Shown here piece after piece: positions 3,173-34,745 of a DNA stretch of 34,923 nt. The stretch is from Vezdaea acicularis (taxonomy: Eukaryota), in contig JAPEUI010000152.1 in NCBI GenBank assembly GCA_026025075.1, positions 1-34,923 of the forward strand. The letters are read 5' to 3'. The position numbers and the translations under genes are program-made. The notes beneath the pieces were generated by a model. That model did no database searches and had not been told where the DNA came from. It saw only the letters and a program-made list of their open reading frames with translations. The first letter of the stretch is position 1. Each line of letters begins with the position of its first letter.

Positions 3173-3882
3173 TATGATATAGTAAGACCGAAGGAGGGAG
3201 GGAGTCTTGCATCAATTTGAGACCAGCGGATACACATTGACTACAATGATGAAGATATAATGCTTTAAGGCTAACATGTATTTACGGGCATGCCACGTTA
3301 AGTGTAGCGGACGCTGAGGCTGTGGCTTTTTCAATCTTCAAAGCCATAGCTCGAACTGGAATAACAGTTTAATTACGACCCTAGTTTCCTACAATTCGAT
3401 CCAAATCGAGCAAAGTAAGGCCAGCCGAAAATGGAAATGGGATTCAAGGAATACAATATGTATTTATGGTGGTATGGGCTCAAGTGGTGTCTACGCTTGA
3501 ATCAAGAGAAACAAGGAGCGGCACACAACTCACTAAGTAGCAGTCACTTTGCCGACAATCCTATTCTGTCTGTAATGCTGGGATTGCCCGACATTACAGC
3601 TCCATTGAACAAAGCTAAGCGTCATCTGATCGTTGGACAAACATCTACTTATACAGATGGTTATCCCACTCAGATCGTCTCTGTAGTTTCACTCATTCTT
3701 TACGATACACACAGCAGAACAAATCTGGCATGTACAAGGAACAGTCTCGCCTCCTGTTGTCAATCTCACACCGGTGGAACGATCAGCACAACTTAGTCAG
3801 TTGAGAACCTGTGGTCTAAAGAGAAACTTGAATACTTCATCACCTCCTAACGAACACAGTAGACCTACAGAAATACCAACCT

Positions 3883-5106
3883 CTAGCTTAACAATTTCAG
3901 CCCGCCAAACCCCATACCTTTCATCTCCTCCTGCACATACTCTACCACGCGCCTAAAAGTTTCCTTCCCTCCATCACAAGCACCACTCTCAAGATGCTGT
4001 GCTAGCCCACTCACAGTCGAGAATTGCCTAACAGCCTTCCCTTTGCTCCCCTCGCCCATCAAGGCACGTGGGCAATGGAATGATATCTCATTGGGTACTG
4101 GTAAGCACAAGGACACAGATGCTTGAGCGTGGATGCGTGACGACAGATGTTGCTGAAGTGCGCTATGCTTGAATGTACGAGTACAGGACGGAGGGCAAAG
4201 GGGACATGTTTGATAGCCACTCTGAGTGCGAGGCCGGAGGGTAAGCGCAGAGTGGAAGTTCGTGCTAGTTGAAAGAGTAGATGTAGGTGTAAGGATCGCG
4301 GAGGGTGGATAAGAGTCGAGGAATTCAGTCGAGGTTGGAGTAAGTATTGGACTCCAAATCTGCGATGTCGAAGTTGCAGACGGGTTGTCCTGTAGCAGCC
4401 ACAGTGCCATGACTCCTCCTGATGTTATAATCTGTTCTATATCATTTGCTGCAATAGCTGCATTCAGTTTCGTCTTCGTCGTCCCTGAGACACATCTCCC
4501 AGCCTCCAAATGTTGCAACTGTGCCGACGGGCAATTAAACTGCTTCTTACACTCCTCGTCTGCTATACACTTAATGTTGCTCAGCGGATTATGCCGTACT
4601 GACGTTAAATGCCGTCCTAGCGCATTATGATTCTTGAAAATCCTTTTGCATTTCTTGCACTTCGTTTGCTGATTGTCTTCCTCTTGTTGTTTTTGTTTCT
4701 TCGTCTTCTTGTTGCTCCCCTTCCCTAATCCGTGTACCTTGCTACAACGAAGATGATCTGCAAGTGCCCCTTGACTTTTGAAATCGCGCTCGCAGTCGCA
4801 GCACCGAAATTGTGTCGCGAAAGATGGTGTTATTGCTAGGACGGGGGCGTGCGATTGTATGTGAAGTGCGTGTAGCCGTCTCGTAGGAGAGAAGATGTCG
4901 CATTTGTAGCAGTAGGCATGCAGGCTCTCACGCTGGTGGGCTTCAAGGGATGGTTTGTGTGTGAAGCGCTGCCTGCATTCGGGACAAGAGTATCTGTCAA
5001 TGGACGGCAGGCGAGCTTCGAGCAGCACTTCAAAGCTGTCAGAGAGATCGCAGCGGGGGCAGGGACAGTGCTTGGTGGATTTTTGGTGTTGGATCAGAGA
5101 GGGCAT
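3883..5106 (-). CDS. Multi-C2H2 zinc-finger protein (407 aa, intronless ORF)
   Basis: Repeated CxxC..H..H units (CPECRQRFTHKPSLEAHQRESLH; CCDCERDFKSQGALADHLRCSKVH; CKKCKRIFKNHNALGRHLTSVRH) and two HLEAG/HLESG-C motifs seen in fungal C2H2 proteins. Confidence 0.88.
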   Translation of the reverse strand: MPSLIQHQKSTKHCPCPRCDLSDSFEVLLEARLPSIDRYSCPECRQRFTHKPSLEAHQRESLHAYCYKCDIFSPTRRLHALHIQSHAPVLAITPSFATQFRCCDCERDFKSQGALADHLRCSKVHGLGKGSNKKTKKQKQQEEDNQQTKCKKCKRIFKNHNALGRHLTSVRHNPLSNIKCIADEECKKQFNCPSAQLQHLEAGRCVSGTTKTKLNAAIAANDIEQIITSGGVMALWLLQDNPSATSTSQIWSPILTPTSTEFLDSYPPSAILTPTSTLSTSTNFHSALTLRPRTQSGYQTCPLCPPSCTRTFKHSALQQHLSSRIHAQASVSLCLPVPNEISFHCPRALMGEGSKGKAVRQFSTVSGLAQHLESGACDGGKETFRRVVEYVQEEMKGMGFGGLKLLS

Positions 5107-5310
5107 AGTGGTGGTGGTGAGAGAGACTGAGTGGGGGAAGTGAGGGATATTCAGGATAGGTATGGCAGGATTGCGGGGTAAGCAACGTCTGTGTCTGTCA
5201 TTGGCGGGTTCTTATCTCAGATTCGCCTTAGGCGACCATAAAACTAACTAAGGCAATTGATGAGTAATATTGCCAGCATTTGCAGCGCGATTTGAGTTGG
5301 CATTTGATAT

Positions 5311-5422: not shown

Positions 5423-6735
5423 TAGTCAAGAAAGCTGTTAGTTACTATTACAGTTGTCGTCATCAACACAGTCGTTGTTTGAACAGTTGTTATTTTGCTC
5501 AAGCAGTTATCGTGAGGCATATGTTACATTTAGTAGTCTATATGTAACGCATACCTAAACCAATCTTTCATCATCCCTTCAGATCATAGCATCTATATCC
5601 TCATATGCTTGGACAATTGTTATCTAGTCAAAACTGACGATTGGTTGATCAAGCAACTTGCTTAATGAGCAGTTTTGTGGTGCCAGTAGCAAATTCTGTG
5701 GTGCAAATTCACACTTGAAAAGCTTGTTGGATCTCCTATCGAACGCCTCTCTGGGTCAGTATACTTTCTAGATAAGCTGCACCTGCTTTCACCTGATGAG
5801 CTGCAATTTTGTGGTATTCATCATGAAAGTTTAGTAATTTAATTGCCAGTCTAATGAAGTATTTTCGATTGGTGATTGGTGATCGTTCTTCTAAGTCGTT
5901 ACCATGATAGTGGTGATTGCGTACTGTCTCTATGATGTTATCGACATGAGATCTTCATGTCATTGGTCTTTTCTCTGATTTAGACTTCTTAGTTTCTATG
6001 CGATCTCTTTACTGGCCAAGAGGAGTGGGTCAGCGGTGATATCTGCAGCCGCCAGCTCTCCTGCATTCTCAATTCTAATTCTCCCAAACCGGTCTCCCAA
6101 GTTGTCCTCCTTGAGCGAGCTGGGGGTTTTTTTGGATGGGATGATTCATCCGCTGGTTCTTCATTTTAGTTGCTGTTGATCCAGTCATTAGAGCTTGATA
6201 GTCCTTTACAACCCCTAAAAACAGAGTGGTGATAGCGGACTGTCTTGCGTCTTTTCAATCCCGTCTCCTGCTAAGTTGGATCTATCCTTTGCGTAATAGC
6301 GTTCCAAGTGACGCTCGACTATCAACATAGAAGTAGGGAGTAATAGGTGTAATTCATCGCAACCACAATACGCAGACTTTGGCCAGATCCGCGTTAAGTT
6401 TAATGGTACGGGATGGAAAGCGTAATAAGCAGATAATGAGAAAATTGCATTAGGCGCAAAGATAAGTTGAGATTTGACGTCAACCTAAATGAAAGTTTCT
6501 GATGTGGGGAGGTCGGGCAAAAAATTGTACTATCAAAAACAAGAAGCGACAAAAATTTGAGGCTTCTGATCGTTCATCTCATCACCGCTTTCTTCACCAT
6601 CACTTACCTCACTTCTCTCTGCAGCTCTCGGTTAATGTTGGGAATAGTGGTGCTACTATTGGCGGATTCTTGATCTTCTTGAGATATTTGGTGCTCATTC
6701 AGCTCTTAGGTGCTCAAATTACGCATCTCAACAAG

Positions 6736-9224
6736 ATGCCTGACGGCGATGGGTCCAGGGCAATTCTTGCAAATTGTGATTCGGATTTCACGCCACTTCG
6801 AGACATGAATCACGAATGTCAATTCTCGAGTACGATGAGTTACTCAGAGCTAATTAGTTGGATCACCACTTCTTTCTCTTTAAAGGAGTTAGAGCATCAA
6901 GTTTCACGCATAACCGTTGATCAAATAAACGCATATGGAGAGAAAGAGTCGATTATCGTGGAAGATGATGAAGATTGGGCCAACGCGATTGATCCGCAAT
7001 TTTCAAAAACAGCTAGCTTAATCCGTGTTCAATTTCGTGTAGAGCCAGCTACTCAAGATATTGGCAGGCGACATTGTACACCTCTCGATGATGCTCTACA
7101 ACAGAGAGATTCAACCAGCAAAGTAACATTGCCTGGCTCATTTCCTTTGTTATCTCAGGCAGCGGGAGATCCACAAAAAGTGTTTCAAAGAAGAACAAAA
7201 GAGGAACAGACCCAAATGCTCCAATATGTGGTTTACTTAGCTGAAAGAAATCCAGGGATCACCAATCAAAGCAATTCTGGGGACAAGCGCGGGGAGACGG
7301 ATCTCACCTATCAAATGTGCATGAAGTTTCTCGATAACAAGAAGCTTCAGCGCTTGCGCGATCGCACTGCAGCTGTGGAAGCAATCACCCGTAGGCTCAA
7401 CTTATACGGCACTTCTAACATCAAGCAAACCATAGTCTACCGTCTTCCTCCACAGCGCCATCGCCCCAATGGAGAGGTGGTGTTCGGAAATGAACACAAA
7501 GCTCATCAGCAGACGTTTCTTGCTTGGGCGCTCTGGATGGAAGAGAGCATTCAGTGCGGAATTTGTGCAGACTATATGGGACTGGGCAAAACGCACGAAT
7601 GGCTTTCTCTCATCGTGGCTGGTACCGATTTCTGGGAGCAACGAGCTACAGGGGGTGCTACACTGGTGGTTGTGCCAAATAACCAAGGTAAAGAAGCCTA
7701 TGATATTGCTCAAAATCAACTTGGAGAAGGGTTCAACGTTATGCGATATGGTATAGGTGGAGGAGTAAGCCATTCGAGATGCGTCAAAAAGATCATGTTG
7801 ACGCCTAAAGATGAGCATTTTGCGGATCCGATCAAACGACGCCGACCTCCCGTCAAAGTGGTACTGAGCATTCTGGACGGAATGAAGAGCAAGGAGAGAG
7901 AAGCTACGCTCAACGGCCTGTCATAGCTACTAATCTATCAAAGAAGCAAGAACGTGATGCCTCAGGAACTGAAGGCTCAGTGCAGGAGTTGAATCATTCA
8001 GATTGTCCTCAACGATTGCAGGCTAGCAGACTATCCGACGTTCCGGAAACCATGATTTCATCTCTAGCCAATCCAATAGAAAATGAGCAAAAGGAAGTCA
8101 GTTCAGCATCTAATGCAATTCGCGTATCTAAAATCGTGGAAACCTGCCCTCGAGTTTTTAGCTCGGCGTTAACCATCAACCGAAAGCCACTTCCTCAAAC
8201 TACTCAGGTCATCACAAAACTGCCATTCTCAGTAGATTCTACTTCCGCCCGTGTCTTCATTGAGAAAGATGCTAAGAAAGAATTCAATGATTCTACAAAT
8301 ACCTCTGCATCATCTACAGCACCCATGCCGTCACAACACGACAATCACACACCGAGCGCAATTCCCAAGTTCAAGCTGAAGATACGGCCGGAGCAGACCA
8401 GATCCGCTCCCGCAGCCCCTGAGCTCTGGCCATGAAACTACAATGAAAACTATCCATGGATAGAAGCATCGTCCGAGCTTGACGTTCGGCTGTCTGAACC
8501 AAAGCCATTCCCGGTCAAAACTAGCCGTCCTCCATGATTCAAGCTCAAAATCAAGCGACCTTTGGCTTTGACGCAGAGTACTGATTTAATTGGCCAAGAA
8601 AAGACTCCCCCCAAGCGTGGCACTCATCTATCATCTTCCTCGCGGGCACCGAGTTCTGTCTCGCCTTCGCAGGCAGAGGATGTTTTTATTTCCCCAACCA
8701 AAGTTGCTGCACAGTCAAAGTTCCTAGAGAGTCTACGGCAGAGGTTGGGCCTCTCCAATAGTCCACGAGAGTTCCAGGAGAGCCTTGTACAGAAGAATTG
8801 GGGCAGCAGCGAGCCGGCGCTCCAGACCATTAGGGCCATGATGCGGAGCGATCTAGCTGAGCTGCCTGTTCGTACCTCGACGGGCCAGCCACCCAGTTTC
8901 TTTTCAGATGAGAGTTCCCAGGTTGAGCCACGGTTAAGTTTCCGGAAGCGACTTTCGCAGTTCAGGCCTCGCCTGCCACCTGCTCGCGCGCGGAAGTCCT
9001 GGATTCCGATGGAAGATATCCGCCCGGTCAGGGAAGAAAATGTGGCTAGCCTTGCCACAAGGCCAACTACTTCTGAAACGGAGCCCAAACGTTTACCTCG
9101 AAAGGAGAGGACAGAATTCCAACATCCTTCCACCGGCTTTCTAGCGAAATTGCGAAGGTGGTTGGCAAAGGGCAAGGAGAAGATTCGAGGATGGAAAGCG
9201 AGTATGAGTCGGAGGGGGGCCTAG
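6736..9224 (+). pseudogene. Disrupted long gene with a truncated SNF2-like ATPase N-terminal fragment and a low-complexity Pro/Ser/Arg tail
   Basis: GICADYMGLGKT resembles SNF2 motif I and ATLVVVP resembles motif Ia; no DExH or later motifs. ORFs 7980-8435 and 8562-9224 share one frame, broken by TGA at 8433 and 8535, and that frame stays open back across the 7926 stop (apparent frameshift). Start at 6736 is a guess. Confidence 0.6.
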
Positions 9225-10585: not shown

Positions 10586-11445
10586 CTACTTCTTCCCGCT
10601 CACCCATCCCTCCACGCCTCCCCTTGCGCCTTCAACGCCCTGCTCAATCTTCTTCTTGCCCAGCTCCGCGTGAACCTTGCCGAACCGCCATGCCTCTTGC
10701 AAGAAGCCTCGGGTATACAAATGCGCATTCCTGACGGCTGGCACCTTTTCCTCATAAGTCCAGACTAGATCTCCAACATTGCGACTGGTGATTGGGAGCA
10801 CTATCCACCCGACGGTGATCCCAGCGGCGAGGGGCACGGAGAAGCGAAGGAGGATGTTGCGATTCCGTGTGAGGATGCTGCCAGCCATTGCTGACACTAG
10901 GACGTAGATTGACCCCGGTAAGACTTTCTCGGAAGAGCCCTTGGACGGTGCAAGAGATGCGATGGTGCTTGTGAAGGAGTTTTCGAGGTGAAACCCTTGC
11001 GTGAGAAGATTGTTGAGCTTGTCCTCGCCTGTAGAGACGGCTCTCTGAAGAGACAGTCGGGCCGCCCGAACATGTTTTTCTAGGCGGTCTGTCGGAGTCG
11101 GGTTTGAGACGGATTGAGAGGAGCTTGGATGGGCGGCTTTGGAGGTCGGCTTTGGATCTGCTTTCACGGCTGAATCGGCGGCGGCTTTCAGAGCGGCTTT
11201 CGAAGCGGCCGAGGGAAGCATTCCCACGTCATCATATATCGGCTTCTTCAAGTACTTTGGAGAGGAATCAGGTGCCTCGGCGTATGCGGTTCTGGAGGAA
11301 AAGAGAGCAATGCCGGCGGCCAGTGCAGTGGCTGCGACTGGGACCACTGAGCGCTGCACATGTGTTAGCCCTTCGCTGTGGATAGTCGCCGGCTGTTCAT
11401 CAGGAGGCGACGGTGGTGTCAAGGAAAGATCTTACCTGCCGCAGC
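10586..11445 (-). CDS. MIC26: MICOS subunit Mic26/Mic27 (apolipoprotein O family), apparently lacking its start codon region
   Basis: Motifs KKPIYDD, TPTDRL..VRAARL, LENSFTSTIASLAP, LPGSIYVLVSAMAGSILTRNRNILLR and NVGDLVWTYE. Intron from a GTAAGA donor at 11435 to GCTAAC..TGCAG near 11354. The upstream exon frame (..ALRQ) meets a TGA within six codons with no ATG. Confidence 0.85.
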
Positions 11446-13726: not shown

Positions 13727-14189
13727 CTTTTGTTGAAAGAAGAGTTGTATTTGGTGTTTGTGAAAGGTTGTTAACACCCAGGCACTGTTCAACTCAAACT
13801 TACTTCAGATGTCTGGGTTTACAGATAGTTCGAGAATAAAGGCACATTTCGATCCATTTTTTTTCCTCCCAGGACTGTGATGTACAACAAGGTTTTAATT
13901 GATTGAATATCCTGATACTTACCGTCGAAAAGGGGCTGTCTCCTTCGTACAGATGTATTTTTTTTCTTCTGATATATGTGTGACTTGGACATGAGGAGAA
14001 ACCCCGGGATATATCCCTTGAAGTACTACTACTACTTTCCTCTAGCTTCGAGGAGTAGTCCAACCTAAGCAAAGGATTCCGCTACCGTCGAGCTTACTGT
14101 CTCTGTATGGTCGCGCGAGGCAATTTGCACGGCGCATGCGTGTCGCAGATTCACATTCTCCTTTGGATTCACTTTGACTCAGCACGTGT

Positions 14190-16000
14190 AATGGGGCTGG
14201 CTGCCTCTCCTCCTCCTTGACTCCACCATTTCATTCTCATCTCGTCCTTTGCACATTGTAGCTTCCTGTTCCGTTTGGTGGTGCTGCTTTGGCATAAGTA
14301 ATAATCCTTCCAGTCCCCTTCGCAGCACCCGCCTTCTCAAATCATCCTGGTCATTGCGCATATCCTCTTGGAGAGCTCCCCCTAAAGCTGAGGTGTGTCT
14401 AAACAAAATGTCCAGCAATCCTAATTGTGGCACCTGTTGGAGGGCACTGCCCACATGATCCATTGCCTCCCTATGAAGGGTAAAGCGACCGTGTAACTTA
14501 GCTAGATAACTTCCATCACATCAGTCAAATTCGGTGTGATCATCACTCCCGCTCCATTCCAACAGCACCCAAGATGAAGGTTTTGGGGTTCGACGTATAT
14601 GTCGCAGTGAGAATGAATGAGTTGCTATCTACGTTGAGACGGGGGGAAGGGGAAGCTTATAAGATTCCCCTGAGTACGGGCCAATCCTACATGGGTATGG
14701 CAGGGGTGAACCACTCGAAACACTCCCTACTAATACAAGAATATACCCTAGTGCCACCTCGTCGACACACTCTCGCTGACAGCAAAGGAAAATGGGCATA
14801 TCGCTTTGGGTGGATATGATTGAAAGTCAGAATTGTTAAGGGTGAATGTATAGAGGATATAAGGATTTGGGGGGGATCTCAAGGGACAGTGTTGGTAGGG
14901 AGTGCCTCACGTGGGTTCACCCCTGCCTTACCCATGTAGGATTAGCGCGTACTCTCAGGGGAAGCTTATAAGCTTCCCCTTCCCCCCGTCACAACGTAGA
15001 TAGCAATTCATACATTCTCACAGCGGCATATTGGTCGAACCCCAAAACCTTTTATATTGTGATAAGCATGAGTCATCAGACCAGAACCGTGTCGAAGGAT
15101 GCCGTTAGAAGTCGCTCAAGAGTAGGAAGAGAGGGCGCTATATAGACTACCAAACCCCCTCAGCCAGAAGAGTAAGCAATTCACAAAATTCTTATACCCT
15201 TCTAGTACCTGTGTGTTTTTTCCACGCTAAACTGTCGTGATGGCAAGAGGAAGAGTGCGCTTGTCCGGCGACTGGACACCCAAAAACAAACTGACGAAAC
15301 ATGGAAGCAACGCCTTTGTGATCAACAAGCCGAGTCAAATTTACTAAATGCTCATGACTGGTTCTGCAGCTTCGCACAAATTTAAATAGATCCTGCATCT
15401 TCGTGCCATATCTAGAGCCCAGCAATCGAAGCGAATACGCTTGGACGCGGCTGACAAACAAGACAAATGGTTTTGTCTCGGGCATCTATCACAACGCTCT
15501 TAAGCTTTGTGGCTCACGTTTGATGTCCATTGGGCTGACTTGCCATTCTTTCCCCAAAGCAAAGTCAGATCCCTCTGTCCCTGAGCTGGCAGCTTTCCCA
15601 GGCCGCCCAAAGTTTGGTGCTCCAAACAATGGCCTCTTTTTCTCTGTGTCAACTTTAGACCAAGTAAGTAAGATAGAGACATGTGTAAGCAAAAACAATC
15701 GACGCTGTATAGGTATGATGATACATCACAAAGACGATTCTGTTGAAGTACTTGCCAGTGGTCGCTCAAAAAGAGTGTGATATCGACCATTTATTCAGAG
15801 CATGACGGTTCGTTTACGGCGTTACGCTACCAAATGTCTGGGAACGGATCTAAAGCCTTCGTCCGTCAAATCTTAGTGTGCACTGATAATAGCGATAAAG
15901 CATTATTTGTGCCTTACAGAGAGCTCAGGTTAATCAAAACAAGAGTAAGTTCTGGAAGAGACATCTTGAAACCTTTTGTGCGCTTACTCATTGTCAAATG
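14190..16000 (+). pseudogene. Relic of a fungal hypothetical-protein gene with stops and frameshifts, interrupted by the MITE
   Basis: Coding-like fragments on both sides of the MITE. CVSKNNRRCIGMMIHHKDDSVEVL is followed by an out-of-frame QW (cttgccagtgg), and ORFs 15403-15780 and 15777-16220 abut in different frames. Boundaries are approximate. Confidence 0.4.
14577..15051. mobile_element. MITE-like non-autonomous element (~475 bp) with ~160 bp imperfect terminal inverted repeats
   Basis: Left arm aaggttttggggttcgac...caggggtgaacc...cactccctactaatac (~14577-14738) is the reverse complement of gtgttggtagggagtg...ggttcacccctg...gtcgaaccccaaaacctt (~14889-15051). No transposase; target-site duplication not clear. 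Confidence 0.88.
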
Positions 16001-16307: not shown

Positions 16308-19300
16308 CTAGATGGCATGAGTTTTGGGCATTGATAACAGATATTCAAACAAATCCCCCGAATCTAGTAATCGTGGTTCCCTTTTACGTTGGAGACTGGC
16401 GAGGTGTTCTAACTTAGAAATCGTACTCTCGTCAACTTGCATGGATGTTCCATAATTTAGCAAACTAAGGATCGGGTTATCGACAAGGCATTTCAGTTTG
16501 GGGCGTAAATTCTCAACCATCTCCACAAAGAAGTTGAGCTGATCATTGTCTTGAGAGATCTTATTATACCTAGAAACAGTTAACGGTGGGGAAAATTGTT
16601 TACGTTTAGATATCAGCTCACATTTCGGGATGCACCGTGAAATTACAATCAAAGGGACTTGAAACCTTTCGGGTAGGAATCAGCGCAGCCACTGGTAGGT
16701 CACAGCATCCTTGTAACCTTTGAAGAGCGTTGCCTTCGTTTACTATACTCTTTATTTTTCGTCTCATCTTGTCTGATTCCGCATCCTTCTCCAGTTCTTC
16801 AATCGGCTTCTCATAGCTCTCGGCAATAAGTTGATCATATACGTAGGCGCCAGCGCTTTTACCTGGATAAATGACTCCAGTTGCTTGACCACTCCTGCCC
16901 TCTCTAAGTCTCTTAAGCTTCTTGTCCTTTAATTTCTGCTGTTGAATTTGCTTCAACTCAGAGAACCGCTTGCTCAGGTAATGAGCAGCCACGCGTTTTT
17001 GAATCTGATAGCAAGCCATGCCGACTCGGGCACCAACATGCAGGGCAAGAGCTCTTGCTGAACAATTAAGTGGTGTTTTGAATTGGGTGACGCCTTGAGA
17101 TTTTAGCATAGTGACTACGTCGACAAGTGTCTGGGGACCGCCAAAAGCAGACACCAGCATGAGAATGGTATATATTGTGCCTGATTGCATCTTCCCGGAT
17201 TTAGACTGCTTGTTGTACGCTTCCAACCACTTTAAGCCAGCGACTTGTAAGATTCCCGTATGTGTAGCATTTGTTGGGCGACATGCAGTAGGGATGTCAT
17301 CAAAATCGGTAAGCTTACGCACCTTTGTCAAGTTCTCTACACCAACACCACCGGAAGCCAGGTCCCTTTTTCGTTTAGCGGAGATAATACGAACTTTGTC
17401 TGTTACATGCTGAATGAGCATTTTGAGATAGTGCAGTCGGAGCTCAACGGGACTTTTGCTCAAGATGTTGCTATTATGTTTTAACAATGCTTCAGCGTGA
17501 GCAATCACATAAATAGCACAGTTAACGCCGTCTTGATGTCCAGGGAAAAGCTGCGATCGTTCTTTAGACCAGTTGATAGATGTTGATAAACTCTTATTTA
17601 CTGATTTTCCGATAAAGTCAGCCACCTCAAAAGATCTGGTTGATTGATCGATGAGATCAATCTTAGCCGAGAGAATGTTGATGACAATAAGATACCAATG
17701 GCAGCCGCCAATAAAGTATGGTGCAATCACCACGGTTGCCTCTGCTGGAATCACAAGCTCGGATATATCGTGACTTTCGAAAGCTTTAGAAAGACTCAAA
17801 GGATCTATGACGAACTTTGTTTCGTGGTCCACACACATGAGTCGAAGGAGAAAGTATACTACACGATCACTCAACCAATTGTCTGGCGGCGAAAGATCAG
17901 GGTCAAATCTGCGAAGTTCAGAGGAGCAGTTTTCTAAACTTTCCATGGATGTGGGCCACATGAAATGCTCATGATGTTCTGAAGCAAATTCGATGCACTG
18001 CTTGATTTCATCACATGCTGAAGCGTTAGAGCCAGGGTTTCTGTCCTTTTTTTGGTCCTCTTTTTCGATTTCTCTTTCGCTGTTGCTATTGACCAGGCTT
18101 CCATTTTCACTTGTGTTTTTGCTCCAGCTCTCACTCTGGTTGTTGCCATTGCTCGGGCTTTCATTGCTGCTGCTGCTCTTGCTCTTACTCTTGCTGTAGC
18201 TAATAGCCAGGCTTGGACTTTTGCTCCGACTCCTGCTCCTGCTCGCAATTTCATCCTCGTCCTCGTCCTCGCCCTTGCCCTCGTGCGTGCTATCGCTCTG
18301 AATTTCGCTATTGCTGTTAACTGGGCTTCCATTTCTACTGCTGCTACCGCTCCTGCTGCTCCTGCTGCTGCTCTTGCTGCTGCTCCTGCTCTTACTGTAG
18401 CTAGTGGCTAGGCTTGGACTTTTGTTCCGACTCTTGCTCCTGCTCGCAATTTCGTCCTCGTCCTCGTCCTCGTCCTCGCCCTCGTCCTCGCCCTCGCCCT
18501 CGTGCGCGCTATCGCTCTGACTTCCGCTTCTGCTCTTGATCCTCATCTCGCTCTCAAGATTTACACCTTTGGGGTTTGAATACTTCTTTCGAATAGGATA
18601 TCTAGTAGTAGTTGATGATGGCCGTGTGGTCCTCCGTGGTTTAGATTGTGTTGTAGGCTTGTCGTCATTCTCCAAATCCACTACATCAAGTGGACGACTA
18701 AAGTTTATCTTCATTCCTCGTGAAGTCATAAACTTGCGTCCACTACCACAACCGGCGCGACTAGAACAATCCCTATGGGTTGGAGGACAGAACCATTTTG
18801 GATTGATACAACAGTTACACGCCTCCGCAATGTTTTTACCAAAGTTAAGACCACAATGATATGCGCCGTACAGGATAAGCATTAAGGTTTTAGGCTCCTG
18901 GAGAGCCACGGAGAAATCAATCTCCCATTCACGCAAAAGGGAGGGACGTATGATTATGGGATAATGGCGCACAAATTGACTGCAGGCCGCTGGAATATTT
19001 AGATGGTGTTTTAGTCGAGACTCCAGCTTCTCTTTATGATGTGGATAAACAATTAGCCAGAGCTTTGGACAGCCCTCAATGACGACATTTATTGAATCTA
19101 AGCCAAAATCCTCCGAGTGTAAAGGGAATACTGTTTCATCGTCGCTGGAAACATAAGCATAAGACGAGTGAATGCCGAGATAGTGTTGCTGAGTGCTGAG
19201 GAGACGATCGTCAGGTTGAAGAATAGAAACAGCAGAAAGGCCTAAATCGCTGCGTTGTTCCTCAATGTGAGCGCTAGCAATATAATATCGTGAAGGCTTG

Positions 19301-19872
19301 TTCGATGATGACTTAGCTATTGCATCGATTTCTTGCTCCATGATTCTTTCAAGATCAGATGTGTCATATGTCCTTGTATCTGGAGGAAATTCGGGCATAT
19401 AAAAACACTCATTGTTACCCAGCTCTATAGTCGACTCCTTAAGCTCAAGTATACCATTCTGATGACGGAGTTTCTGCTCTTGTACTTCACCTCGACGGAT
19501 TTCACCAAGGGTGTGAGACAAAGGTGGTAGATTTGGAAGCTTCACGACAAGGAAGCCTGCTATTGATTTATGTCGATTGACCTTCTCCAAGCCTCGTAAC
19601 TGTTGTACAAGATTTGAGGTGTCTTGTAAAAAAAGTGTTTCACATTCTTCGCGGGATCCAACAGTTAGAGCTGGAGATTGAGAGCTTGCAGCGCTTCCAA
19701 GGCCGGTATCCAAGCGCTGCCTTATTGACTGAGCTGCTTCTGGATGGTTCTTGAGATATTGTAGGAGGGGGCCTAATATCTGAATTGAGGCTTAGTAAAA
19801 GTCTTGCTGTGCTCAAGGTATCGTACTTACACTATCTAGTGTGGCGTTCTGTGATCTGGTGGACCTTGCCAT
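16308..19872 (-). CDS. JmjC (KDM4/Rph1-like) demethylase domain + Ser/Arg/acidic linker + Ulp1-like (C48) protease domain + helical C-terminus, about 1,150 aa
   Basis: Exons 19872-19831, 19779-16622 and 16569-16308 with in-frame introns 19830-19780 and 16621-16570. JmjC: FPLHSEDFGLDSIN (HxE), PKLWLIV, CSQFVRH, GAYHCGLNFGKNIAEACN. C48: WLSDRVV, GCHWYLIVIN, IDLID, HQDGVNCAIYV (H, D, Q, C). Confidence 0.88.
18160..18540 (-). repeat. Internal duplication and low-complexity linker within the JmjC-Ulp1 gene
   Basis: QSDSAHEGEGEDEGEDEDEDEDEIASRSKSRNKSPSLATSYSKS and QSDSTHEGKGEDEDEDEIASRSRSRSKSPSLAISYSKS, built from ctcgtc and ctgctc micro-repeats. Confidence 0.85.
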
Positions 19873-19930
19873 GATTCGTTCGCGTTGCGTCGTGGGCGTC
19901 GTGTACGTTGTGTGCGAATCTATGGTTGGG

Positions 19931-20000
19931 GTGTTATATCACGTGAGTCGCGGCTCCGTACATCGGATTGTACGGAGCCGCGACTCACGTGATATAACAC
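19931..20000. repeat. Perfect hairpin, 32 bp stem and 6 nt loop
   Basis: gtgttatatcacgtgagtcgcggctccgtaca - tcggat - tgtacggagccgcgactcacgtgatataacac, about 60 bp upstream of the JmjC-Ulp1 ATG; each arm contains CACGTG. Confidence 0.97.
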
Positions 20001-22255
20001 TCTAAGTGTGACCAACCACCATACAGTGCGTGGCATACGAGAAGCACTACATAGAGGCGTCACCTTTGAATGCGGCACCATGCTGTCACTGAATCGTTGC
20101 AAATTCAATCAATGCTATTGTGGGCTTACATTGGGGAGAATTTATGTAATACTATGTTTTGGATTTAGATGCATTGTCGGTAGAACTTTGTCATCTCAAC
20201 CCTTTTGCTCAGGGGCCTGCCTGGGTAGGTAGGTGCTGCTCTAATAAACTGCCCTCTCAAAGAATCGAGCGTCCTAATAGCTAATTGGCACAGACAAATA
20301 TCTTTCCTGTATAGACGAGAATTGACATCTCACATCTGTCGCTCTCGCTGTTGTGGGTAGCCCCTCAACTGCCAATGCAAGTCGGTGTCAATCCAACGGA
20401 AATCCGACTTATCAGGCTCACCCCCAGAAATTGCCTCGTCCCTAGTGTCCGTTTCTTTGCAATGGAAAGGTCGCTCTGTCGTGATATCTGTGACCGTCCG
20501 GTGTACTTACGACTGATCTCGCTGGCAAGTTACATCGGGCCAGTCATTTGTACACGTACAGCGAGGTTGTTTGCGGCAGTCAAAAATTCGAGAGAAGCCA
20601 TCACATTGGATTGCCTAAGCTGCAAGTATTGTACTGATCAGCGATTTGTCGAATACAACCAGTGGCTCGTCAAGTTTGCAGGGAAGAGTGACCGAGTGAT
20701 CCTGTCTCCGCTGGGTGTCAGACAGGAGACTGAAGGCATCCCAAGCTGTCCTCCATGCAACATCGCGATTTGGCTTTTCCTCGGTATACCTCGCTGTCTC
20801 AGCCACGATCACTCTTTCCTCCTTTGTTATGGTACTCGTGCTATCGCCTGTGACCGGTCCCTACATGCCTTGCAAAGCAGACAGAGTCCTCTTTATTCCA
20901 TTCACGTAACAGTCTTTCATTTTAAGATGTCATAGATCGGCGTTGATGACCTTGCGCTAACATTGGACAGGATTCCGAGCTTTTGGAGTAGTTCTCTTTA
21001 GGTCAGCTTTCCACTGGCGTAATGTTATCTGTTGGGCCTACGCGGCCATCAATGAAGAAATAGCCTGCCCCCTTTTGACACTTAGCTTGGAGTTACCTCG
21101 GCGCACTTTCGACAAGTATGAGGCTAGAGCTATATCCTCGTATGGTAGGCACTTAATCGATATACCATTGCCAAAAGCTCGATCGTCGCAATTAACCTAT
21201 ATGGGAAACGCCATTAGGTGCCCCTTCTCTGGCCGCACAGATTCTTGCTACTAACGCTGGAAGTAGCTCTACGGTCGGAGGGAAAGAAATTCTCACACTC
21301 TAAATCGCCATGTCCATTAGACAGTTGCGATCTTTCTTCTGGGTATTCCAAATCAAGGTCTTGCCATTATGGATTTGCTGTTTAGATCTGTTTCAAAGTT
21401 GACGACGGCTTGACCAGTCAGTCCACCCTGCTTGGGAAATGAGACGTGACGAGTCGGCGTATTCCTTATTTAGATCTCTCATGATGTTGATAATCTTAGG
21501 GGATCTTTAAGAATGGCTCACTGGCTGTGTCTGTGTCATCTCAAAAACATGTGGCAATGAATGTTATCCTCTGCTAGTTGGCTGGATAGACCAAAGTTAA
21601 CGTAGATCGTGTCAAAGATCACTTACTTGGTCCACTTTGACTGCCATGAGCTTACAACCGGTACATAATTATTAGTAGCGTGAATAGAGTCTGGCCTCAA
21701 GTCGTCTGTTGTGAGGGCCAACCTGCTGCGACGGCCCAACCTGCTGTGAGGAGTGTACTGTACAGTACAGTGAGTAAGTGCTGCTTGAATAGGAATATTC
21801 TGTAGAAAGGCGACCAAACAAAGTCCGGCGATAAGTGAAGTGAAGATCAATGGGGTGAATATGAGTGAGGTGAAGTGAAGGTGGGAGTAATACGTACATA
21901 AAGTTTAGCAAGAGTGGTTTCTTGGGAGACGGATTGTTTCTCACTTGATTGCATCTGCGCCTCTTGTATCAATATCGCCCCTGATCTGCGCCCCAACAGG
22001 GATAGACGACGGCGCATGAACATACCAAACCAAAAACACTGGTTGTTTTGGATTCAGACATCGAGTCCTGGCTTGGAGAGTTCCCGTTGAACTCCAGTCC
22101 TTAGATTCTTACAATTAGGCCCAATCTATCCCTCCAACAAGAGGATCTGCTCATCGGGAGCTTACGCAGTCGATGAACGCCCATATAAGTCAATGCCGAT
22201 CGAATCCGATCAACGTCCTCAACGCTGCCGCCGACATCAGTACCCGCAAGATTGT

Positions 22256-22974: not shown

Positions 22975-23351
22975 TAGGGTCATGTTGTAACTATAGGACA
23001 GCTGGAGGTCGCATAACTCCTTCCTTCTAGCAACGGTGTTTTGAATGCTTTGAATCAAGAAGGGGAGAATATTTTTGATAAGCTACTGATTCGTGAGGGT
23101 CCACTCGTTGGTGTTTATGTATGGCAAGGTCACCTGACTTGGCTCGGTGATCGCATGGCGTTCTCACTTCTTACTTGATAAATATTCAGCCAGTGGTATT
23201 TGCCCTCTCATCCATCAACACAAACACAACATCATACTCAACCTCTTTGCCCCTGACTCTCTTTACAAGACCTTCATCTTTCATCCTTACGATCTATTCC
23301 ATCACCTCCTTCAGTAGATACCGTGTTGTCAGATTCGGAGCGAAGCCTTAC

Positions 23352-23415
23352 GCAGCATCCCTGCACTGCAGCATCCCTGCACTGCAGCATCCCTGCACTG
23401 CAGCATCCCTGCACT
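23352..23415. repeat. Four perfect tandem copies of the 16-mer gcagcatccctgcact
   Basis: Directly visible; ends 13 bp before the ATG at 23429. Confidence 0.96.
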
Positions 23416-23428
23416 AATTGTCGGTCCA

Positions 23429-25870
23429 ATGGCGCACGTTATTTTTCCGAGCCACACGGCCACAGGCAAAGCTCCTTTCGACAGCGGAAGCCCGAGTGAT
23501 GAGCCGCAAGAACTATCTGAGAGCCAGCTGCAAGGGCTACCTCTGAGCAAGCAGCTCCAGCTACTGGTTGAACGCATCAAAACCGCCGCAGAAAAGCAAG
23601 AACCTTTGGTCGAGTCGGCAATCGAAGCCTGGGATTACATTATCAACCACCAGACATGGAGAGCAAACTACCCGACATTGGAAGCTCTGAAGGACGAGCT
23701 GAACCGCAGCGCAGGCCTCGATTGCATAATCAAGACACATGAGTCGATCGTGTCTCGCAAGCAACTTGAAATTACAGGAATCGAGAAAGAATGGAAGTGT
23801 TCTCCAGACCAGGCGTTGCCGTCACATATGAAACCTGAACAGTATTCACATATATTACTCAGAGGTTTGAATCAGCTCAGCAGAGTTCTTCCCAAGGAGG
23901 AAGCTATACGCCAGTTGACCATCGCAATCACAACCCGTCAAAGCAAAATCCGAACTAGAAAATCTCCTTTTTTATCATATCCAGACATCAAAGCAGTGTT
24001 GGACCAAATTCAGTCAAAGAAAAATGCTTGCGAAGTTGCCAAGGCCAACGATACGAATCTTGGGGATGTGGCAGGCTCGGAGGTCGTTGCCGAAGAGGAC
24101 ACTTCCATGACTGGGTCAGATTTGGAGACGATCACGGGTGCATCCACTCACAATGAGGAAGAGAAAGGTGGTGACAACGAGGAAGATGATGACAGAGATG
24201 AAGAAAATGAAGGCGACAATGACGATGATGATGACGATAATGTTGACAATGACAAAGATGAAGACATGATGGAAGCTGGAGAGGACCAAGAAGACCAAGA
24301 CATGACGGAAGCTGGAGATAGCCTCATTAGCAATGATAAGGGGCAGAATCAGAATATTCAGCCCTGTTTGGCAAAACTCATGTCCAAGAGGAAGAAGATA
24401 TCATGTCGCTGCCCAAAGGCGTTGATCAAAGAGATGGAATGCACTCGTGCTGGCAGGCTAGAGGACAAGCCAAGTAGCGGGATTAAGCTGCTCAAAAATG
24501 GCAGGAAGTATGGCCTCGGGAAGCTGTGCCACAATCATCTGAGAGTATTGGCCGGCAAGGCCATGATGCTGAAGACAAGTCGTCCGTCGACGGCCCTCAT
24601 TGAGCGACTGGAAACCTTGTGGCAGAACCACGGACAGCTGGACCAACAGAGAGTAGATAATGCGGAATGGTTCACAGGGATGCCGCCTGCCAAAATGTAC
24701 AAATTCATCCCTCTTCCAGCTCCAGCTTTCGATTTCAACTCTGCTATCATATTCGACTGCTTTGCAGGAGACGGCATGTGGTCAAGGTGGATCGACCAGG
24801 GGACTATCAACATTCCAAAGTTCTTTAGTTATCTGGTGGATTCTCCGACAATCTTCTCCAAGGTTGAGCAAGAGTTTGACATGTACCAGCATCACTACTC
24901 TGCACCGGAGAACACAAGGGGCTGGCTGAGGATTATGTACTACTCCTTGACCCAGCAAGTCATTCGACAGGATCCAGCGTACTACGCCGTCACCGTTGCC
25001 AGCCGACCGGACAAGAATTGGCGTCTGATCAGTTACCCGTACTACACCAAGGACACCACAAACCTAGGTAAGAGCACCGAGTTTCGCCACTTTGACATGA
25101 ATGTTCGCAAGTTCTTGAGCACTGGCAAGGGAGGGAACATTATCCAGGGCTGTGTGGCCCTGGATGATGAGACAGACAATGACTGCACTATGCTGATTCC
25201 TGAATTCCACAAGCATATTGCTGAATGGTGGGGAGAAGTGACGAGGAGAAAACAAGCTATCGGAGAACAGCTCCCAAATGGGGAAACCACGAACATTCCA
25301 TCAGAAATGTACACCCCAGAAGACAAGAAGAGGTTTGGTGCGTTTGTTCCCTGCCCCAGTCAGCGAGGTGGGATCCGCATTACCAGGCCGGACATTGCAC
25401 ATGGCTCCAGCAAGAAGGCTGGGCAGCGGCGGCGGACAATTTTTCCTTGGTTCACTGGCATTCGGGACGATCACCAAACGCTTGACAACGAAGAGAGCGA
25501 GACCTGGGACCAGCTGGCTGCTTATCACAGGGCTCTGTTAGCCTGTTACAAGTCACCGAGTGGGAGAAGTGCCGATGCTTACGGCCGGCCAGATGCGCCC
25601 TTTGCCGCGGGAGTGAAGCTATTCAGCACATGGGCCATCGGTGATGCATTGATTGGAGCAAGAAGATGGGATGATCCTATGGTTGTGCGAGACCGAAATC
25701 GGCTCTTGGGACCGGACTCCGAATCCAGAATTGCTTTGGTACAAGAGGTGCGGCAAAGGCTGCTGGACAACTTTTTAGAGGCGTTTCTCATTCTGGAAGA
25801 GGCTGAAAAGACTTCCTTTGGCTCAGACTCCTTCTTCCTGAAGCATGCCTCTGTAGTTTCGTGCTCCTGA
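23429..25870 (+). CDS. 813 aa intronless protein: helical N-terminus, acidic tract, Cys/His cluster and C-terminal PhyH-like 2OG-Fe(II) dioxygenase domain
   Basis: FRHFDMN (HxD), IQGCVALDDETDNDCTMLIPEFHK (PhyH-type strand), RGGIRITRPDIAHGS (distal His) and RRTIFPW (2OG-binding Arg); SCRCP...LCHNHLR upstream. Confidence 0.8.
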   Translation: MAHVIFPSHTATGKAPFDSGSPSDEPQELSESQLQGLPLSKQLQLLVERIKTAAEKQEPLVESAIEAWDYIINHQTWRANYPTLEALKDELNRSAGLDCIIKTHESIVSRKQLEITGIEKEWKCSPDQALPSHMKPEQYSHILLRGLNQLSRVLPKEEAIRQLTIAITTRQSKIRTRKSPFLSYPDIKAVLDQIQSKKNACEVAKANDTNLGDVAGSEVVAEEDTSMTGSDLETITGASTHNEEEKGGDNEEDDDRDEENEGDNDDDDDDNVDNDKDEDMMEAGEDQEDQDMTEAGDSLISNDKGQNQNIQPCLAKLMSKRKKISCRCPKALIKEMECTRAGRLEDKPSSGIKLLKNGRKYGLGKLCHNHLRVLAGKAMMLKTSRPSTALIERLETLWQNHGQLDQQRVDNAEWFTGMPPAKMYKFIPLPAPAFDFNSAIIFDCFAGDGMWSRWIDQGTINIPKFFSYLVDSPTIFSKVEQEFDMYQHHYSAPENTRGWLRIMYYSLTQQVIRQDPAYYAVTVASRPDKNWRLISYPYYTKDTTNLGKSTEFRHFDMNVRKFLSTGKGGNIIQGCVALDDETDNDCTMLIPEFHKHIAEWWGEVTRRKQAIGEQLPNGETTNIPSEMYTPEDKKRFGAFVPCPSQRGGIRITRPDIAHGSSKKAGQRRRTIFPWFTGIRDDHQTLDNEESETWDQLAAYHRALLACYKSPSGRSADAYGRPDAPFAAGVKLFSTWAIGDALIGARRWDDPMVVRDRNRLLGPDSESRIALVQEVRQRLLDNFLEAFLILEEAEKTSFGSDSFFLKHASVVSCS

Positions 25871-27960: not shown

Positions 27961-29321
27961 TTACACAGTACTACCTCTTGCCCTAACAGGCAGTTTATTA
28001 ACCTTATCATCAGTTATGCGACCTTGCTCAGTATCTGAGGGTGAATCTGCTGGCAGAGATGTGTCATCACTTTGACTATCAATTTCAGAAGTCGTTGAAC
28101 TTGGCGCAGTTTGGGCCTGGTGAGCAGCGCTAGATCCACTTGGTTGAGCACAAATGGAGAAGCTAAATGAACTTTAGTGCAGCACGCCTGACATGAGATA
28201 TGAATCCTACTTACACTCGCCAGAATCCATGTATCCTTGTATCTTTTATCTCTCTTCTTACGTGGCCAAGAAGAACCTCTACCTCATATCTGGACCATTT
28301 TAACCCTTCGATGAACGGCGCCAACGTGAAGCCTGAAAGTCCTTCTAGCAGATTGTGCAGGGCCATAGCTCCAATTATCTTCTCCTCATGATCTTTAGGC
28401 CAAGAATTGATTGGCCACTTGCGTTCTTCCCTTTTGATACTAGTAAATCCAGTCTCTGTGAGTGTCTCGATTAAGCCCTGCATCGAATAAAGGGGACGAG
28501 CTTTTTTTTGATATGCTTCCTTTCTGAGATCCGACCATTTCTTTAAATATGAGTCTTCTGGGATTGATGAATCATCACATTCAAGTTGAAGACTAACGTC
28601 CTGTATTTCTAACCATCCATCCGAATTGAGATGTTCTCTACACCATTGTAAGACTCCCAACCAATTTCGAAGGCTTCCAACAAGACCGCGAGTATGAATA
28701 TAATCCCATTTTGTCAAGGGATGCCATTGGCACGTCTCAACATCGTCGACAACAAAAAAGACACCTGAAGGGACCCTGAATTGTTTGATTAGTTGTAAGG
28801 AGTATCGATTCGGACGTGATTTTTCTACTAACAAAGTTGGTTGAATTGCGCTGAGATCAATTCCTGTTACTATCATACCTGGATTCATCTCCGCTATAAT
28901 TTTCATGTTAAACTTGAAATTTTACGTGCAATGGCCTTTGGATTTTTACCAAAATCCATCACCCATATTCCAGTCCCAGTCCCAGTACCAATATCAAGAA
29001 CATTCTGTGCTCCTGATTTAATGGGAGCCTGATATAATTTCCGCCGAATGTATTCAGAAATAGCTGATGTTGCCAATCAAGACGATCTTGCTCCGCCTGC
29101 AATGCATGGTGAGTGAGAATTTTCAACATCAAGTTCTCGTTATGTCTTGCCTCGTCATTAGGTAAAAGATAGCCCTTACTATACGCTTGATAGGTGCGCC
29201 CATACTTCTCAATACCCTCTCTTACTGATGAACTCACGGAAGTGGAACCTTGACTTTCTAGATCTACATTTATTCCTTCGTCTTCGTCGACAACATCTGG
29301 ATTTGGCTGAGTGGTAGCCAT
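27961..29321 (-). pseudogene. LaeA-like (Methyltransf_23-type) SAM-dependent methyltransferase with a 1 nt frameshift
   Basis: STSVSSSV..KYGRTYQAY..YLLPNDE|AEQDRLDWQH, VLDIGTGTGIW, GIDLSAIQP, VDDVE, WDYIHTR, DGWLEIQD and KWPINSWPKD. Four introns, the first GC-AG (29150-29097). ggaaattatat near 29035 lacks one A, so KLYQAP..VLDIGTGTG is out of frame. Confidence 0.88.
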
Positions 29322-33233: not shown

Positions 33234-34745
33234 CACCCTTGACATGCGGTTTTTCGTAAGCGAGTGCCTTTACGAATAGGTGGATGGTAGCCCTTCGACC
33301 GCCTATTCGTAAAGGCATGAGCCGTTAGCGAGCTATTAGCTACCGGCTTGCCTGCGCTTCAAGCGCTCGAAGCCTGGGGCAGCCGGCTTCACCCTGGGGT
33401 CGCTGGGGCGCTCCCGCAAGCACTTGAAGCGCTCAAAGCCCCGGGCAGCCGGCTTCGCTCCGGGCTCGCTGGGGCGCTACTTCAAGCGCTTAAAGCGCTC
33501 CAAGCCTAGGGCGGCCGGCTTTGCCCTGGGCTTGCTAGGGCGCTTCCGCGAGCGTTTGAAGCGCTTGAAGCGCTCAAATCGCCAGGCAGCTGGTTTTGCT
33601 CCAGGCTTGCTGGGGGTTCTGCTTTAAGCATTTAAAGCGCTTAAAGTCCAGAGCGGCCGGCTCTGCTCTGGGCTTACTAGAGCTCTATTTTAAGCACTTG
33701 AAGCGCTTAAGCCTGGGGCGGCTTGGCTCTGCTTTGGACTAGCTGGAGCGTTCCTACAAGCATTTTAAGTGCTTTAAATGCCTAAAATTTAATACATTCA
33801 TTTTTGTAATATGTTTATTAAATCAAAAATTTTAAATCTTTACGCAATTGCGGTTTTGCTTATACTTAATATTTTAATTGCTTCAACTATTCTAAAAATA
33901 TTAAATTAATTATGATACAATATGTATCAATATGAACTGCATAAAGTTTTAGGTGTCGCGGATAAAATAAATGAACGCATCTATTAAATCTAATTGATTC
34001 ATGTTTTAATTATTTTTTAAATATCAAATTGCAAGGAATTTTTCAAAAATGTTAGTATTAGTTATTTTCAAATATAAATTGTTTTATTGCTCCAAAAAAA
34101 TTCTTGATAAAATCGTACCAATGTTTTTCTATTAATTATTTTCATCAATATCTAACAAGATTTTAACTATTTTTATCAATTATTTTTACTTTTAATATTA
34201 GATTAATTAATTTAGGAATTAATAATATTAAAATACTAAAATATTCTATTCAATAATTAAAAATATTTTTTTAGCAGTGCAAAAGCTCAAAATCGGCAAT
34301 TTGAGCGTGAATAGCATTGCGCTTTAAGCGTTTCAAACGCTTGAAGCGCTCATAGGAGCGCTCTAGCAAACTCAATGAGAAGCCGGCTGCCTGGAGCTTG
34401 AAGCGCTTAAAGCACTTCAAGCACTCTTGAAAGCGCCCCAGCGAGCCCAGGGCACAGCCGACTGCTTTGGGCTTCAAGCGCTTGAAGCAGCGCTTGCTGC
34501 AGCACCCCAGCAAGCCCGGAGCAAAGCCGGCCGCCCCAGGCTTGGAGCGCTTCAAGCGCTTGTGGGAGCGCCCCAGCGAGCCCGGAGCGAAGCCAGCTGC
34601 CCCAGGCTTCAAGCGCTTGAAGCGCAGGCAGCTGGTAGCTAATAGCTCGCTAATGGTTCATGCCTTTACGAATAGGCGGTCGAAGGGCTACCATCCACCT
34701 ATTTCGTAAAGGCATTCGCTTACGAAAAACCGCATGCTAAGGGTG
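33234..34745. mobile_element. 1.5 kb foldback-type non-autonomous DNA element: ~500 bp inverted arms with subterminal tandem repeats around an AT-rich core
   Basis: Ends cacccttgacatgcggtttttcgtaagcga / tcgcttacgaaaaaccgcatgctaagggtg. Arms carry ~60 bp repeats (aagcgcttgaagcgctc..cccggggcagccggcttcgctccgggctcgctggggcgct). Core ~33790-34270 is extremely AT-rich. No ORF of recognisable function and no clear target-site duplication. Confidence 0.92.

Follow-up and report, generated by a model that had tools for sequence, protein, structure and literature searches.

The DNA analysed here is a 34,923 bp stretch of the Vezdaea acicularis genome (GenBank assembly GCA_026025075.1, contig JAPEUI010000152.1, positions 1 to 34,923; the whole of it is called the window below), and its minus strand carries, at bp 16308–19872, a gene whose 1153 amino acid product joins three conserved parts on one chain: a KDM4-like JmjC domain, a protease domain of the Ulp1/SENP (C48) type and a C-terminal module. 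The silencing of heterochromatin and transposons draws on methylation of histone H3 at lysines 9 and 36 (H3K9 and H3K36) and on SUMOylation acting together. We would put at about an even chance the reading that this is a chromatin protein combining a KDM4-type demethylase with a SUMO/ubiquitin-like isopeptidase, two erasers on a single polypeptide.

The gene runs from ATG to TAG in three exons, the intact spliced reading frame that the initial annotation of this region had described, and its predicted spliced product is identical in every letter (100%) to the deposited V. acicularis protein P0002 (1153 aa), whose record is titled 'MAG: Lysine-specific demethylase 4B [Vezdaea acicularis]' (MAG, metagenome-assembled genome). 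All features of the gene given below are on the minus strand. A 1057-codon uninterrupted frame (bp 16618–19791) spans JmjC, the linker and C48 and gives exon 2 (bp 16622–19779), which encodes the N-terminal family region, JmjC, the linker, C48 and most of the C-terminal module. Exon 1 (bp 19831–19872; 14 codons, MARSTRSQNATLDS) agrees with the N-terminal start of P0002, and intron 1 (bp 19780–19830; 51 nt, GTAAGT..CAG) is placed where it is because it is required for the in-frame joining of exon 1 to the 1057-codon frame. Intron 2 (bp 16570–16621; 52 nt, GTGAGC..TAG) is in phase 2, and its splice, ..HPEM/YNKIS.., agrees with P0002; exon 3 (bp 16308–16569) supplies the final 86 residues and the TAG codon (bp 16308–16310). 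As read from the DNA, both introns are of the GT..AG kind with a CTAAC-like branch site.

A full search with HMMER, using the C48 and C-terminal part of the protein (473 aa) against 1.84 billion cluster representatives (50% identity), returned 56 representatives at E <= 1e-3 (55 of them non-self); over that part the closest non-self relative is at most about 33% identical. Eighteen of the 55 non-self matches carry the family N-terminal/JmjC region (E down to 8e-71 against the query), and 16 of these 18 also have C48, so the architecture for which the initial annotation had suggested a survey of fungal proteomes does recur; the remaining two, P0058 and P0060, have JmjC and the C-terminal module only. 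Another 25 of the 55 are pieces of the C-terminal module, and 12 are C48 only, made up of six protease-only fragments that resemble the domain of the fused family and six C48 proteins without JmjC (P0044, P0048, P0051, P0052, P0054 and P0061). Four of the latter six match Pfam C48 strongly (P0052 at 4e-27, P0061 at 5e-23, P0048 at 5e-20 and P0044 at 5e-9), and two are fused to a chromatin-type domain, a linker histone in P0044 and a PHD finger in P0052, which fits a chromatin role for the protease branch. All three modules are present in seven full-length proteins (P0002, P0005, P0008, P0009, P0022, P0028 and P0039) and in three genomic loci, L001, L002 and L003. Many short database entries stop in ..VS just after the middle of the protease, as a read-through GTAAGT donor would give, and L001–L003 have an intron at this position, so most short entries are probably fragments of longer genes. 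The named members come from Vezdaea acicularis, Stictis urceolatum and Exophiala spinifera (Vezdaea and Exophiala both belong to the Pezizomycotina), and another family member has been automatically annotated as a ubiquitin-like protease. Of two alignment-based word-index searches for further relatives, one added a single extra protein (P0063) and the other returned only a protein that its query alignment already contained; the 13 pattern matches in viral contigs include no relative.

The KDM4-like JmjC catalytic core lies at bp 18733–19176 (P0002 aa 216–363), as placed by Pfam and by alignment to KDM4D. It matches the Pfam JmjC family PF02373 (E 1.1e-17) with a score of 65 bits, where the cutoff is 24, and 22 of 22 JmjC-bearing family members match as well. 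The iron ligands that the initial annotation had read as HSE..H are found in the catalytic columns of the KDM4D alignment at H235 (bp 19117–19119), E237 (bp 19111–19113) and H322 (bp 18856–18858). The closest solved relative of this domain is KDM4D (E 1.3e-17), followed by KDM4C, KDM4A and KDM4B at about 1e-14 and by Rph1 at E 6.6e-10; KDM5 and plant JMJ14 give much weaker matches than the KDM4 proteins, and the family profile matches KDM4D at E 2e-35. In the KDM4D alignment the 2-oxoglutarate residues N245 and K253 are in place, and half of the KDM4 zinc site is kept (Cys280 and His286). Across the family, Cys280 and Cys352 are invariant, His286 is present in 21 and Cys358 in 19 of the 22 members, and the spacing of these residues is unlike the KDM4 CxC. 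In its active site the JmjC module is KDM4-like, but the protein as a whole departs from the canonical KDM4/Rph1 plan, and Pfam finds neither a PHD or Tudor nor a C2H2 tail in the query. Directly after the JmjC/zinc region, about 14 of the 22 members have an acidic motif, RPLD(V/I)xDxxE (P0002 aa 375–385, about bp 18667–18699). The idea that RPLD(V/I)xD might be a SUMO-interaction motif was dropped, as a simple consensus pattern fits only 6 of the 22 members, and only 4 of the 22 at the motif itself.

The second domain (bp 17350–18039, P0002 aa 595–824) was delimited with an AlphaFold2 (AF2) model, Foldseek, VIA and a motif alignment. By sequence, the match of the query to solved structures is insignificant (SENP8, E 0.22), and a profile made from the 22 JmjC-bearing members, with no canonical C48 rows in it, finds SENP1 at E 9.5e-8. 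Four of these 22 members reach the Pfam C48 cutoff (P0031 at 26.8, P0043 at 22.9, P0045 at 21.3 and P0009 at 20.8 bits), and 10 of the 22 match that family at E <= 0.1. BLASTP of the window's C48 domain against canonical C48 proteins gives P0061 at E 8e-13 and P0044 at E 1e-14, with His, Asp and Cys aligned. Modelled from the single sequence, the region has low confidence (predicted local distance difference test score, pLDDT, 37.8); with a 57-row alignment, mean pLDDT is 85.5 and most 10-residue blocks over model residues 11–220 are above 90. Foldseek searches with the latter model return Ulp1 first (E 3.4e-7, probability 1.00) and then SENPs, with a template-modelling score of 0.70 on the target for SENP5. 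VIA, which is independent of Foldseek, gives SENP3 at Z 17.9, Ulp1 (1euv) at Z 17.8 (199 aligned residues, root-mean-square deviation 3.8), SENP5 at Z 17.2, SENP1 at Z 16.8 and NEDP1 at Z 16.1; bacterial and viral CE-clan enzymes are lower, at Z 13 to 8 (African swine fever virus, ASFV, pS273R 10.1, poxvirus I7L 9.1, adenain 8.7). The Foldseek and VIA matches listed cover model residues 1–255 only, which is the C48 side of the model. ESM Atlas searches for this domain reach C48-type clusters at only 0.81, below the significance level. Identity to the solved enzymes is 13–17%, and the motifs WLSD, CHWY (with His708), LIDQ (with Asp725) and VNCA (with Cys768) are in register with the canonical WLND, HW, D and C. 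In the model, then, the clan CE Ulp1/SENP fold of the second domain is confirmed, by the kind of structure prediction that the initial annotation had recommended, and alignment to canonical C48 proteins indicates that a catalytic triad is kept, namely His708 (bp 17698–17700), Asp725 (bp 17647–17649) and Cys768 (bp 17518–17520).

JmjC and C48 are connected by the low-complexity serine/arginine-rich and acidic, disordered linker that had been noted earlier (bp 18040–18699, from the translation), and within its DNA there is also a repeat of about 200 bp (bp 18165–18530, direct and tandem repeats). The linkers of relatives are likewise long, charged and internally repeated, and their sequences are unrelated to that of the query. 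A second, short disordered spacer (bp 17239–17328; model residues 238–267, pLDDT below 50) separates C48 from the C-terminal module (bp 16311–17232), which is helical, about 290 aa long, split by intron 2 and modelled with high pLDDT. This module is conserved: 25 of the 55 non-self matches hit this part alone, and there are shared motifs in the alignment. Comparison of 25 members with Pfam gave no consistent family for it, the sequences in the PDB gave nothing at E <= 10, and the ESM Atlas gave no lead. It is a third conserved, uncharacterised domain, which the initial annotation had overlooked.

Judged from their sequences, the members form a small, divergent family that is monophyletic relative to two canonical JmjN-JmjC outgroup proteins; in a tree of the JmjC region the 22 members make up one group against these two, with support of 100/100 and a long branch. 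The ratio of nonsynonymous to synonymous substitution rates (dN/dS), calculated by the Nei-Gojobori method for L002 and L003, is 0.37 for the whole first exon, 0.15–0.19 for the JmjC core, 0.41–0.56 for the linker, 0.41–0.82 for the two halves of C48 and 0.29–0.33 for the C-terminal module. All modules are under purifying selection, and it is strongest on JmjC. In addition, contigs from four DNA runs belonging to two studies are 90–99% alike to the window and contain the gene, and one of them runs on past the gene's 3′ end into the same flank; these contigs show presence and this one bridged junction only, and bins that they leave uncovered prove nothing. The differences between strains within the gene, six synonymous and eight nonsynonymous in one 190 bp stretch, are too few for interpretation.

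It is plausible that the protein acts as a two-enzyme eraser, with each functional step taken from the homologs of its parts. By the known roles of KDM4 and Ulp1/SENP enzymes it should be a nuclear protein; the JmjC part would demethylate H3K9 and/or H3K36 methyl-lysine, the protease part would strip SUMO or a related ubiquitin-like modifier from nearby chromatin proteins, and the third module or the linker would recruit the protein to sites where methyl- and SUMO-dependent silencing would be opposed. A number of observations count against this reading. KDM4 enzymes depend on JmjN for a stable fold, and JmjN is found by Pfam (E <= 0.1) in none of the 22 family members; when the family profile is aligned with a JmjN-JmjC protein by hhalign, the catalytic core alone is paired and no JmjN part, so that the difference from the JmjN-JmjC-zinc-finger plan of Rph1, already pointed out in the initial annotation, extends to the whole family. 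The iron triad is intact in 16 of the 22 members and lost in six, which fall on three or more branches of the tree, so demethylase catalysis must be dispensable in part of the family. On the protease side, the query scores 19.6–19.7 bits against Pfam PF02902 (C48), just short of the cutoff of 20.7 (E 8e-4); the HMMER check proposed earlier therefore fails for the single sequence, although the homology holds because the family-only profile matches SENP1. The AF2 alignment contained five canonical C48 rows, so the modelled fold is not fully independent of them, as the family-only profile is. Within the H/D/Q/C set that had been read for this domain, the His, Asp and Cys stand and the Gln does not fall into place: the oxyanion position, six residues before the Cys, is His761, and Gln762 is the next residue. 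The canonical oxyanion Gln is missing in most fused members, and of the full-length ones P0008 alone has it. Finally, C48 is the least constrained module in the comparison of L002 with L003.

The members that have lost iron ligands also show how the modules relate to each other. Four of the six fall in one clade (support 99/95) and the other two, P0035 and P0059, lie elsewhere; the clade of four, which would be dead as a demethylase, still has the C-terminal module and, in its protease, the His, Asp and Cys. Conversely, P0004, P0058 and P0060 are without the protease, have an intact JmjC and group with the protease-bearing P0009. The modules can therefore be separated, and some members are natural variants with a single activity; from the JmjC-dead clade it would seem that the constant functional core consists of the protease and the C-terminal module.

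The same weak points of the protease domain, its unconserved oxyanion Gln (present in P0008 alone among full-length members), a Pfam score under the cutoff in the query and the highest dN/dS of any module (0.41–0.82), would also be expected if C48 were a pseudo-protease, a module for binding SUMO or a ubiquitin-like protein that brings the demethylase to modified chromatin. We regard this as unlikely, since His, Asp and Cys are present in seven of seven full-length proteins and in L002 and L003, the JmjC-dead clade included, and such persistence of the triad would be unexpected for a purely binding role; Gln762 of the query is, moreover, just one residue off the canonical position.

The genomic setting of the three other loci bears on whether the gene is accessory or mobile. 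L001 and L002 are paralogs (69% over JmjC), and their contigs share an assembly prefix. L002 and L003 share a 4.1 kb stretch at 90% identity, and its edges are sharp: the homology sets in about 110 bp ahead of the ATG and breaks off about 30 bp short of the L002 stop codon; the 10 kb flanks on either side have no similarity by blastn or tblastx. The 4.1 kb block has no terminal inverted or direct repeats or target duplications, and its 3′ end is within the coding region. With 56 representatives among 1.84 billion, paralogs, and unrelated flanks around a 90% identical pair, the evidence supports the view that this is not a widespread syntenic core gene; its being a core gene of that kind is what the initial annotation had named as speaking against its proposal. 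The gene behaves as a member of an accessory, fast-moving family, and its carriage by an element is at most a lead.

This lead comes from L002, where open reading frames (ORFs) matching DUF3435 (E 3.9e-54 and 1.4e-15) lie 3 kb downstream of the fusion gene on the opposite strand; their coding region (L002 16432–19679, minus strand) is split by one in-frame stop at 18019–18021. In part of one published account (PMC11162782), DUF3435 recombinases are described as the 'captains' of Starships, which sit at the element's 5′ end. With a captain in that position, and given the orientation of the L002 DUF3435 region, the fusion gene would fall within such an element. No DUF3435 match is found within 10 kb of L001 or L003, so that this hint of Starships, an association that the initial annotation had suggested surveying, is seen at the one locus and not at the other two. 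L002 also has a 19 bp tandem array (13899–14055) between the fusion gene and the DUF3435 region. Downstream of the fusion gene, at a distance of about 3 kb, L001 (16569–17359) and L003 (15805–16573) have another gene in common, in the opposite orientation and about 40% identical (tblastx); it has no Pfam match and may represent a second family that accompanies the fusion gene.

An element-borne anti-silencing factor, carried as cargo by a Starship-like or other large element and keeping that element free of H3K9 methylation- and SUMO-dependent silencing, would account for the position and orientation of DUF3435 in L002, the 90% identical 4.1 kb block in unrelated flanks, the paralogs in one assembly, the small number of family representatives and the presence in the window of an NOD-like receptor (NLR) gene and two foldback/MITE-like elements (MITE, miniature inverted-repeat transposable element). 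This is nevertheless improbable, to about the same degree as a pseudo-protease. Among the 37 longer ORFs of the window, which is only 34.9 kb long, there is no recombinase (DUF3435 included), transposase or reverse transcriptase/retroelement, and none of the 96 shorter ORFs matches any family; no repeats bracket the gene, and dinucleotide indices for repeat-induced point mutation are below the usual thresholds across the window. DUF3435 at one locus of four is an anecdote, its frame has an in-frame stop, the 4.1 kb block has no terminal repeats and ends within the coding region, related-strain contigs share the same 3′ junction, and viral contigs hold no relatives. The fuller version, in which a mobile module on Starship-type or large elements would strip H3K9/K36 methylation and SUMO, its C-terminal module picking out the element or that element's recombinase, so that the cargo escapes heterochromatin defence, we consider a shade less likely again. 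The earlier suggestion that the protein protects a mobile or accessory region is thus not borne out here, as the window has no mobile-element gene and the Starship hint is that of L002.

Proteases of the CE clan from adenovirus, ASFV and poxviruses cut polyproteins, and the two-eraser reading can also be set against one in which the C48 domain would cut the linkers in cis and free separate demethylase and C-terminal proteins. Viral polyprotein proteases do have the same fold (at the lower Z scores of 10.1 for ASFV pS273R, 9.1 for I7L and 8.7 for adenain), long disordered linkers lie on either side of the protease, and a Gly-Gly is found just past the domain (..LASGGVGV..). However, the nearest folds are SUMO/Nedd8 isopeptidases (Z 16–18) rather than viral enzymes, the linkers are unconserved between members, so that no conserved cleavage site is visible, and a lone GG is expected by chance; self-processing is therefore very doubtful. 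That the gene is a neutral or decaying chimera, an accident of gene prediction, assembly or recent rearrangement without joint function, is barely credible even though its source is a metagenome-assembled genome and many database relatives are truncated models, since JmjC, linker and C48 lie within the single 1057-codon frame, the same module order is found in 16 other representatives and three independent loci, dN/dS is below 1 in every module, the gene is present, 90–99% alike, in independent DNA runs of two studies, and the truncated models end in ..VS as a read-through GTAAGT intron donor would yield.

The surroundings of the gene in the window are mixed. Stretches of 4.9 kb and 3.4 kb with no recognisable coding capacity flank it, and an 80 bp palindrome (bp 19926–20005) lies 54 bp upstream of its ATG. 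The palindrome has 37 nt arms that are 95% complementary, a 6 nt loop and a CACGTG inside, and its arms have no copies in the window beyond its own two; candidate explanations are a promoter element, a hairpin and a very small foldback insertion. As a feature of the family it was dropped, as L002 and L003 have a short imperfect palindrome at the start of their homology and none is visible in L001. The left end of the window is occupied by a SesA-NACHT(NPHP3_N)-WD40 NLR gene (bp 1–3211, minus strand) that is cut off by the end of the contig. The WD40 portion consists of a 126 bp tandem array of 5.3 copies that are 96% alike, a pattern as in hypervariable fungal NLRs, and this array is probably why the assembly stops there. 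It is followed by a C2H2 protein gene (bp 3886–5211, minus), a SNF2-related ORF of 477 aa (bp 6493–7923, plus) and an ApoO/MIC26 gene (bp 10589–11431, minus). The SNF2-related ORF matches the first 61 of 290 profile positions only and the frames that follow it have no family match, so this may be a helicase gene that has been truncated or has decayed. To the right of the fusion gene lie an 850 aa ORF (bp 23318–25867, plus) and a methyltransferase gene (bp 28214–28921, minus). The former has a weak hint of PhyH, a 2-oxoglutarate oxygenase family (E 2e-3, below cutoff), and no match among PDB sequences; near its start is a perfect 16 bp tandem repeat of four units (bp 23352–23415), which lacks two of its units (32 bp) in runs X1 and X4. 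The initial annotation had stated that many neighbors have decayed, which does not agree with the long frames kept by the NLR gene, the C2H2 protein gene, ApoO and the 850 aa ORF; the SNF2 fragment alone looks truncated.

Two sections of the window resemble mobile DNA. A foldback/MITE-like element of about 475 bp (bp 14577–15051) has arms of about 136 nt, and the section that contains it, bp 14055–15336, is uncovered in runs X1, X2 and X4, with loose ends at 14054 (X1 only) and at 15337 (all three), which suggests an insertion or replacement polymorphism between strains. Near the right end, a 1.5 kb element with long terminal inverted repeats (bp 33234–34745) has 66 bp subterminal tandem repeats in its arms and no coding match; it looks like a non-autonomous DNA transposon.

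Both enzyme domains of the protein are of known kinds, and what is new is the recurrent fusion architecture and the uncharacterised C-terminal module; no description of a JmjC-C48 fusion or of this family was found in the papers searched, as judged by titles and the openings of abstracts, supplements excluded; among those that came up, one treats a fish element and one, for V. acicularis, is floristic. If the dual eraser on one chain is real, it would give a handle on how methyl and SUMO marks are coupled, and a direct one in view of the purifying selection on the fusion and its recurrence across fungi. The family would supply its own natural controls, in the clade that lacks the JmjC metal ligands and keeps the protease triad and in the members without a protease. 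Should the Starship link prove true, this would be a eukaryotic mobile element bearing its own chromatin counter-defence.

Related themes are known from other systems. Plant KI-MULEs carry Ulp1-like proteases, and TET/JBP dioxygenase genes are linked to fungal KDZ transposons; these resemble the present case in that a CE-clan protease or a 2-oxoglutarate dioxygenase is found with mobile DNA, and differ from it in that no transposase is linked to the gene here. Epe1 of fission yeast is a JmjC protein that limits heterochromatin spreading and is not known to have a protease domain; set beside the V. acicularis protein by description, it is alike only in the idea of a JmjC anti-silencing factor. 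With Ulp1 and the SENPs (MEROPS C48, clan CE) the second domain shares its modelled fold and, at aligned positions, a WLND-like motif, a His-Trp pair, the Asp and the Cys; it differs from them in the replaced oxyanion Gln, in its low identity (13–17%) and in its position in mid-protein behind a demethylase. The KDM4/JMJD2 proteins (KDM4A–D and Rph1) have in common with the first domain the HxE..H ligands, the Asn/Lys 2-oxoglutarate residues and the Cys/His half of the zinc site, and KDM4D, the closest sequence match of both the query and the family profile, shares in addition an AEAxN-type pocket motif. Unlike them, the present family does without JmjN, PHD/Tudor and a C2H2 tail, and has instead its own N-terminal region, a fused protease and the new C-terminal module.

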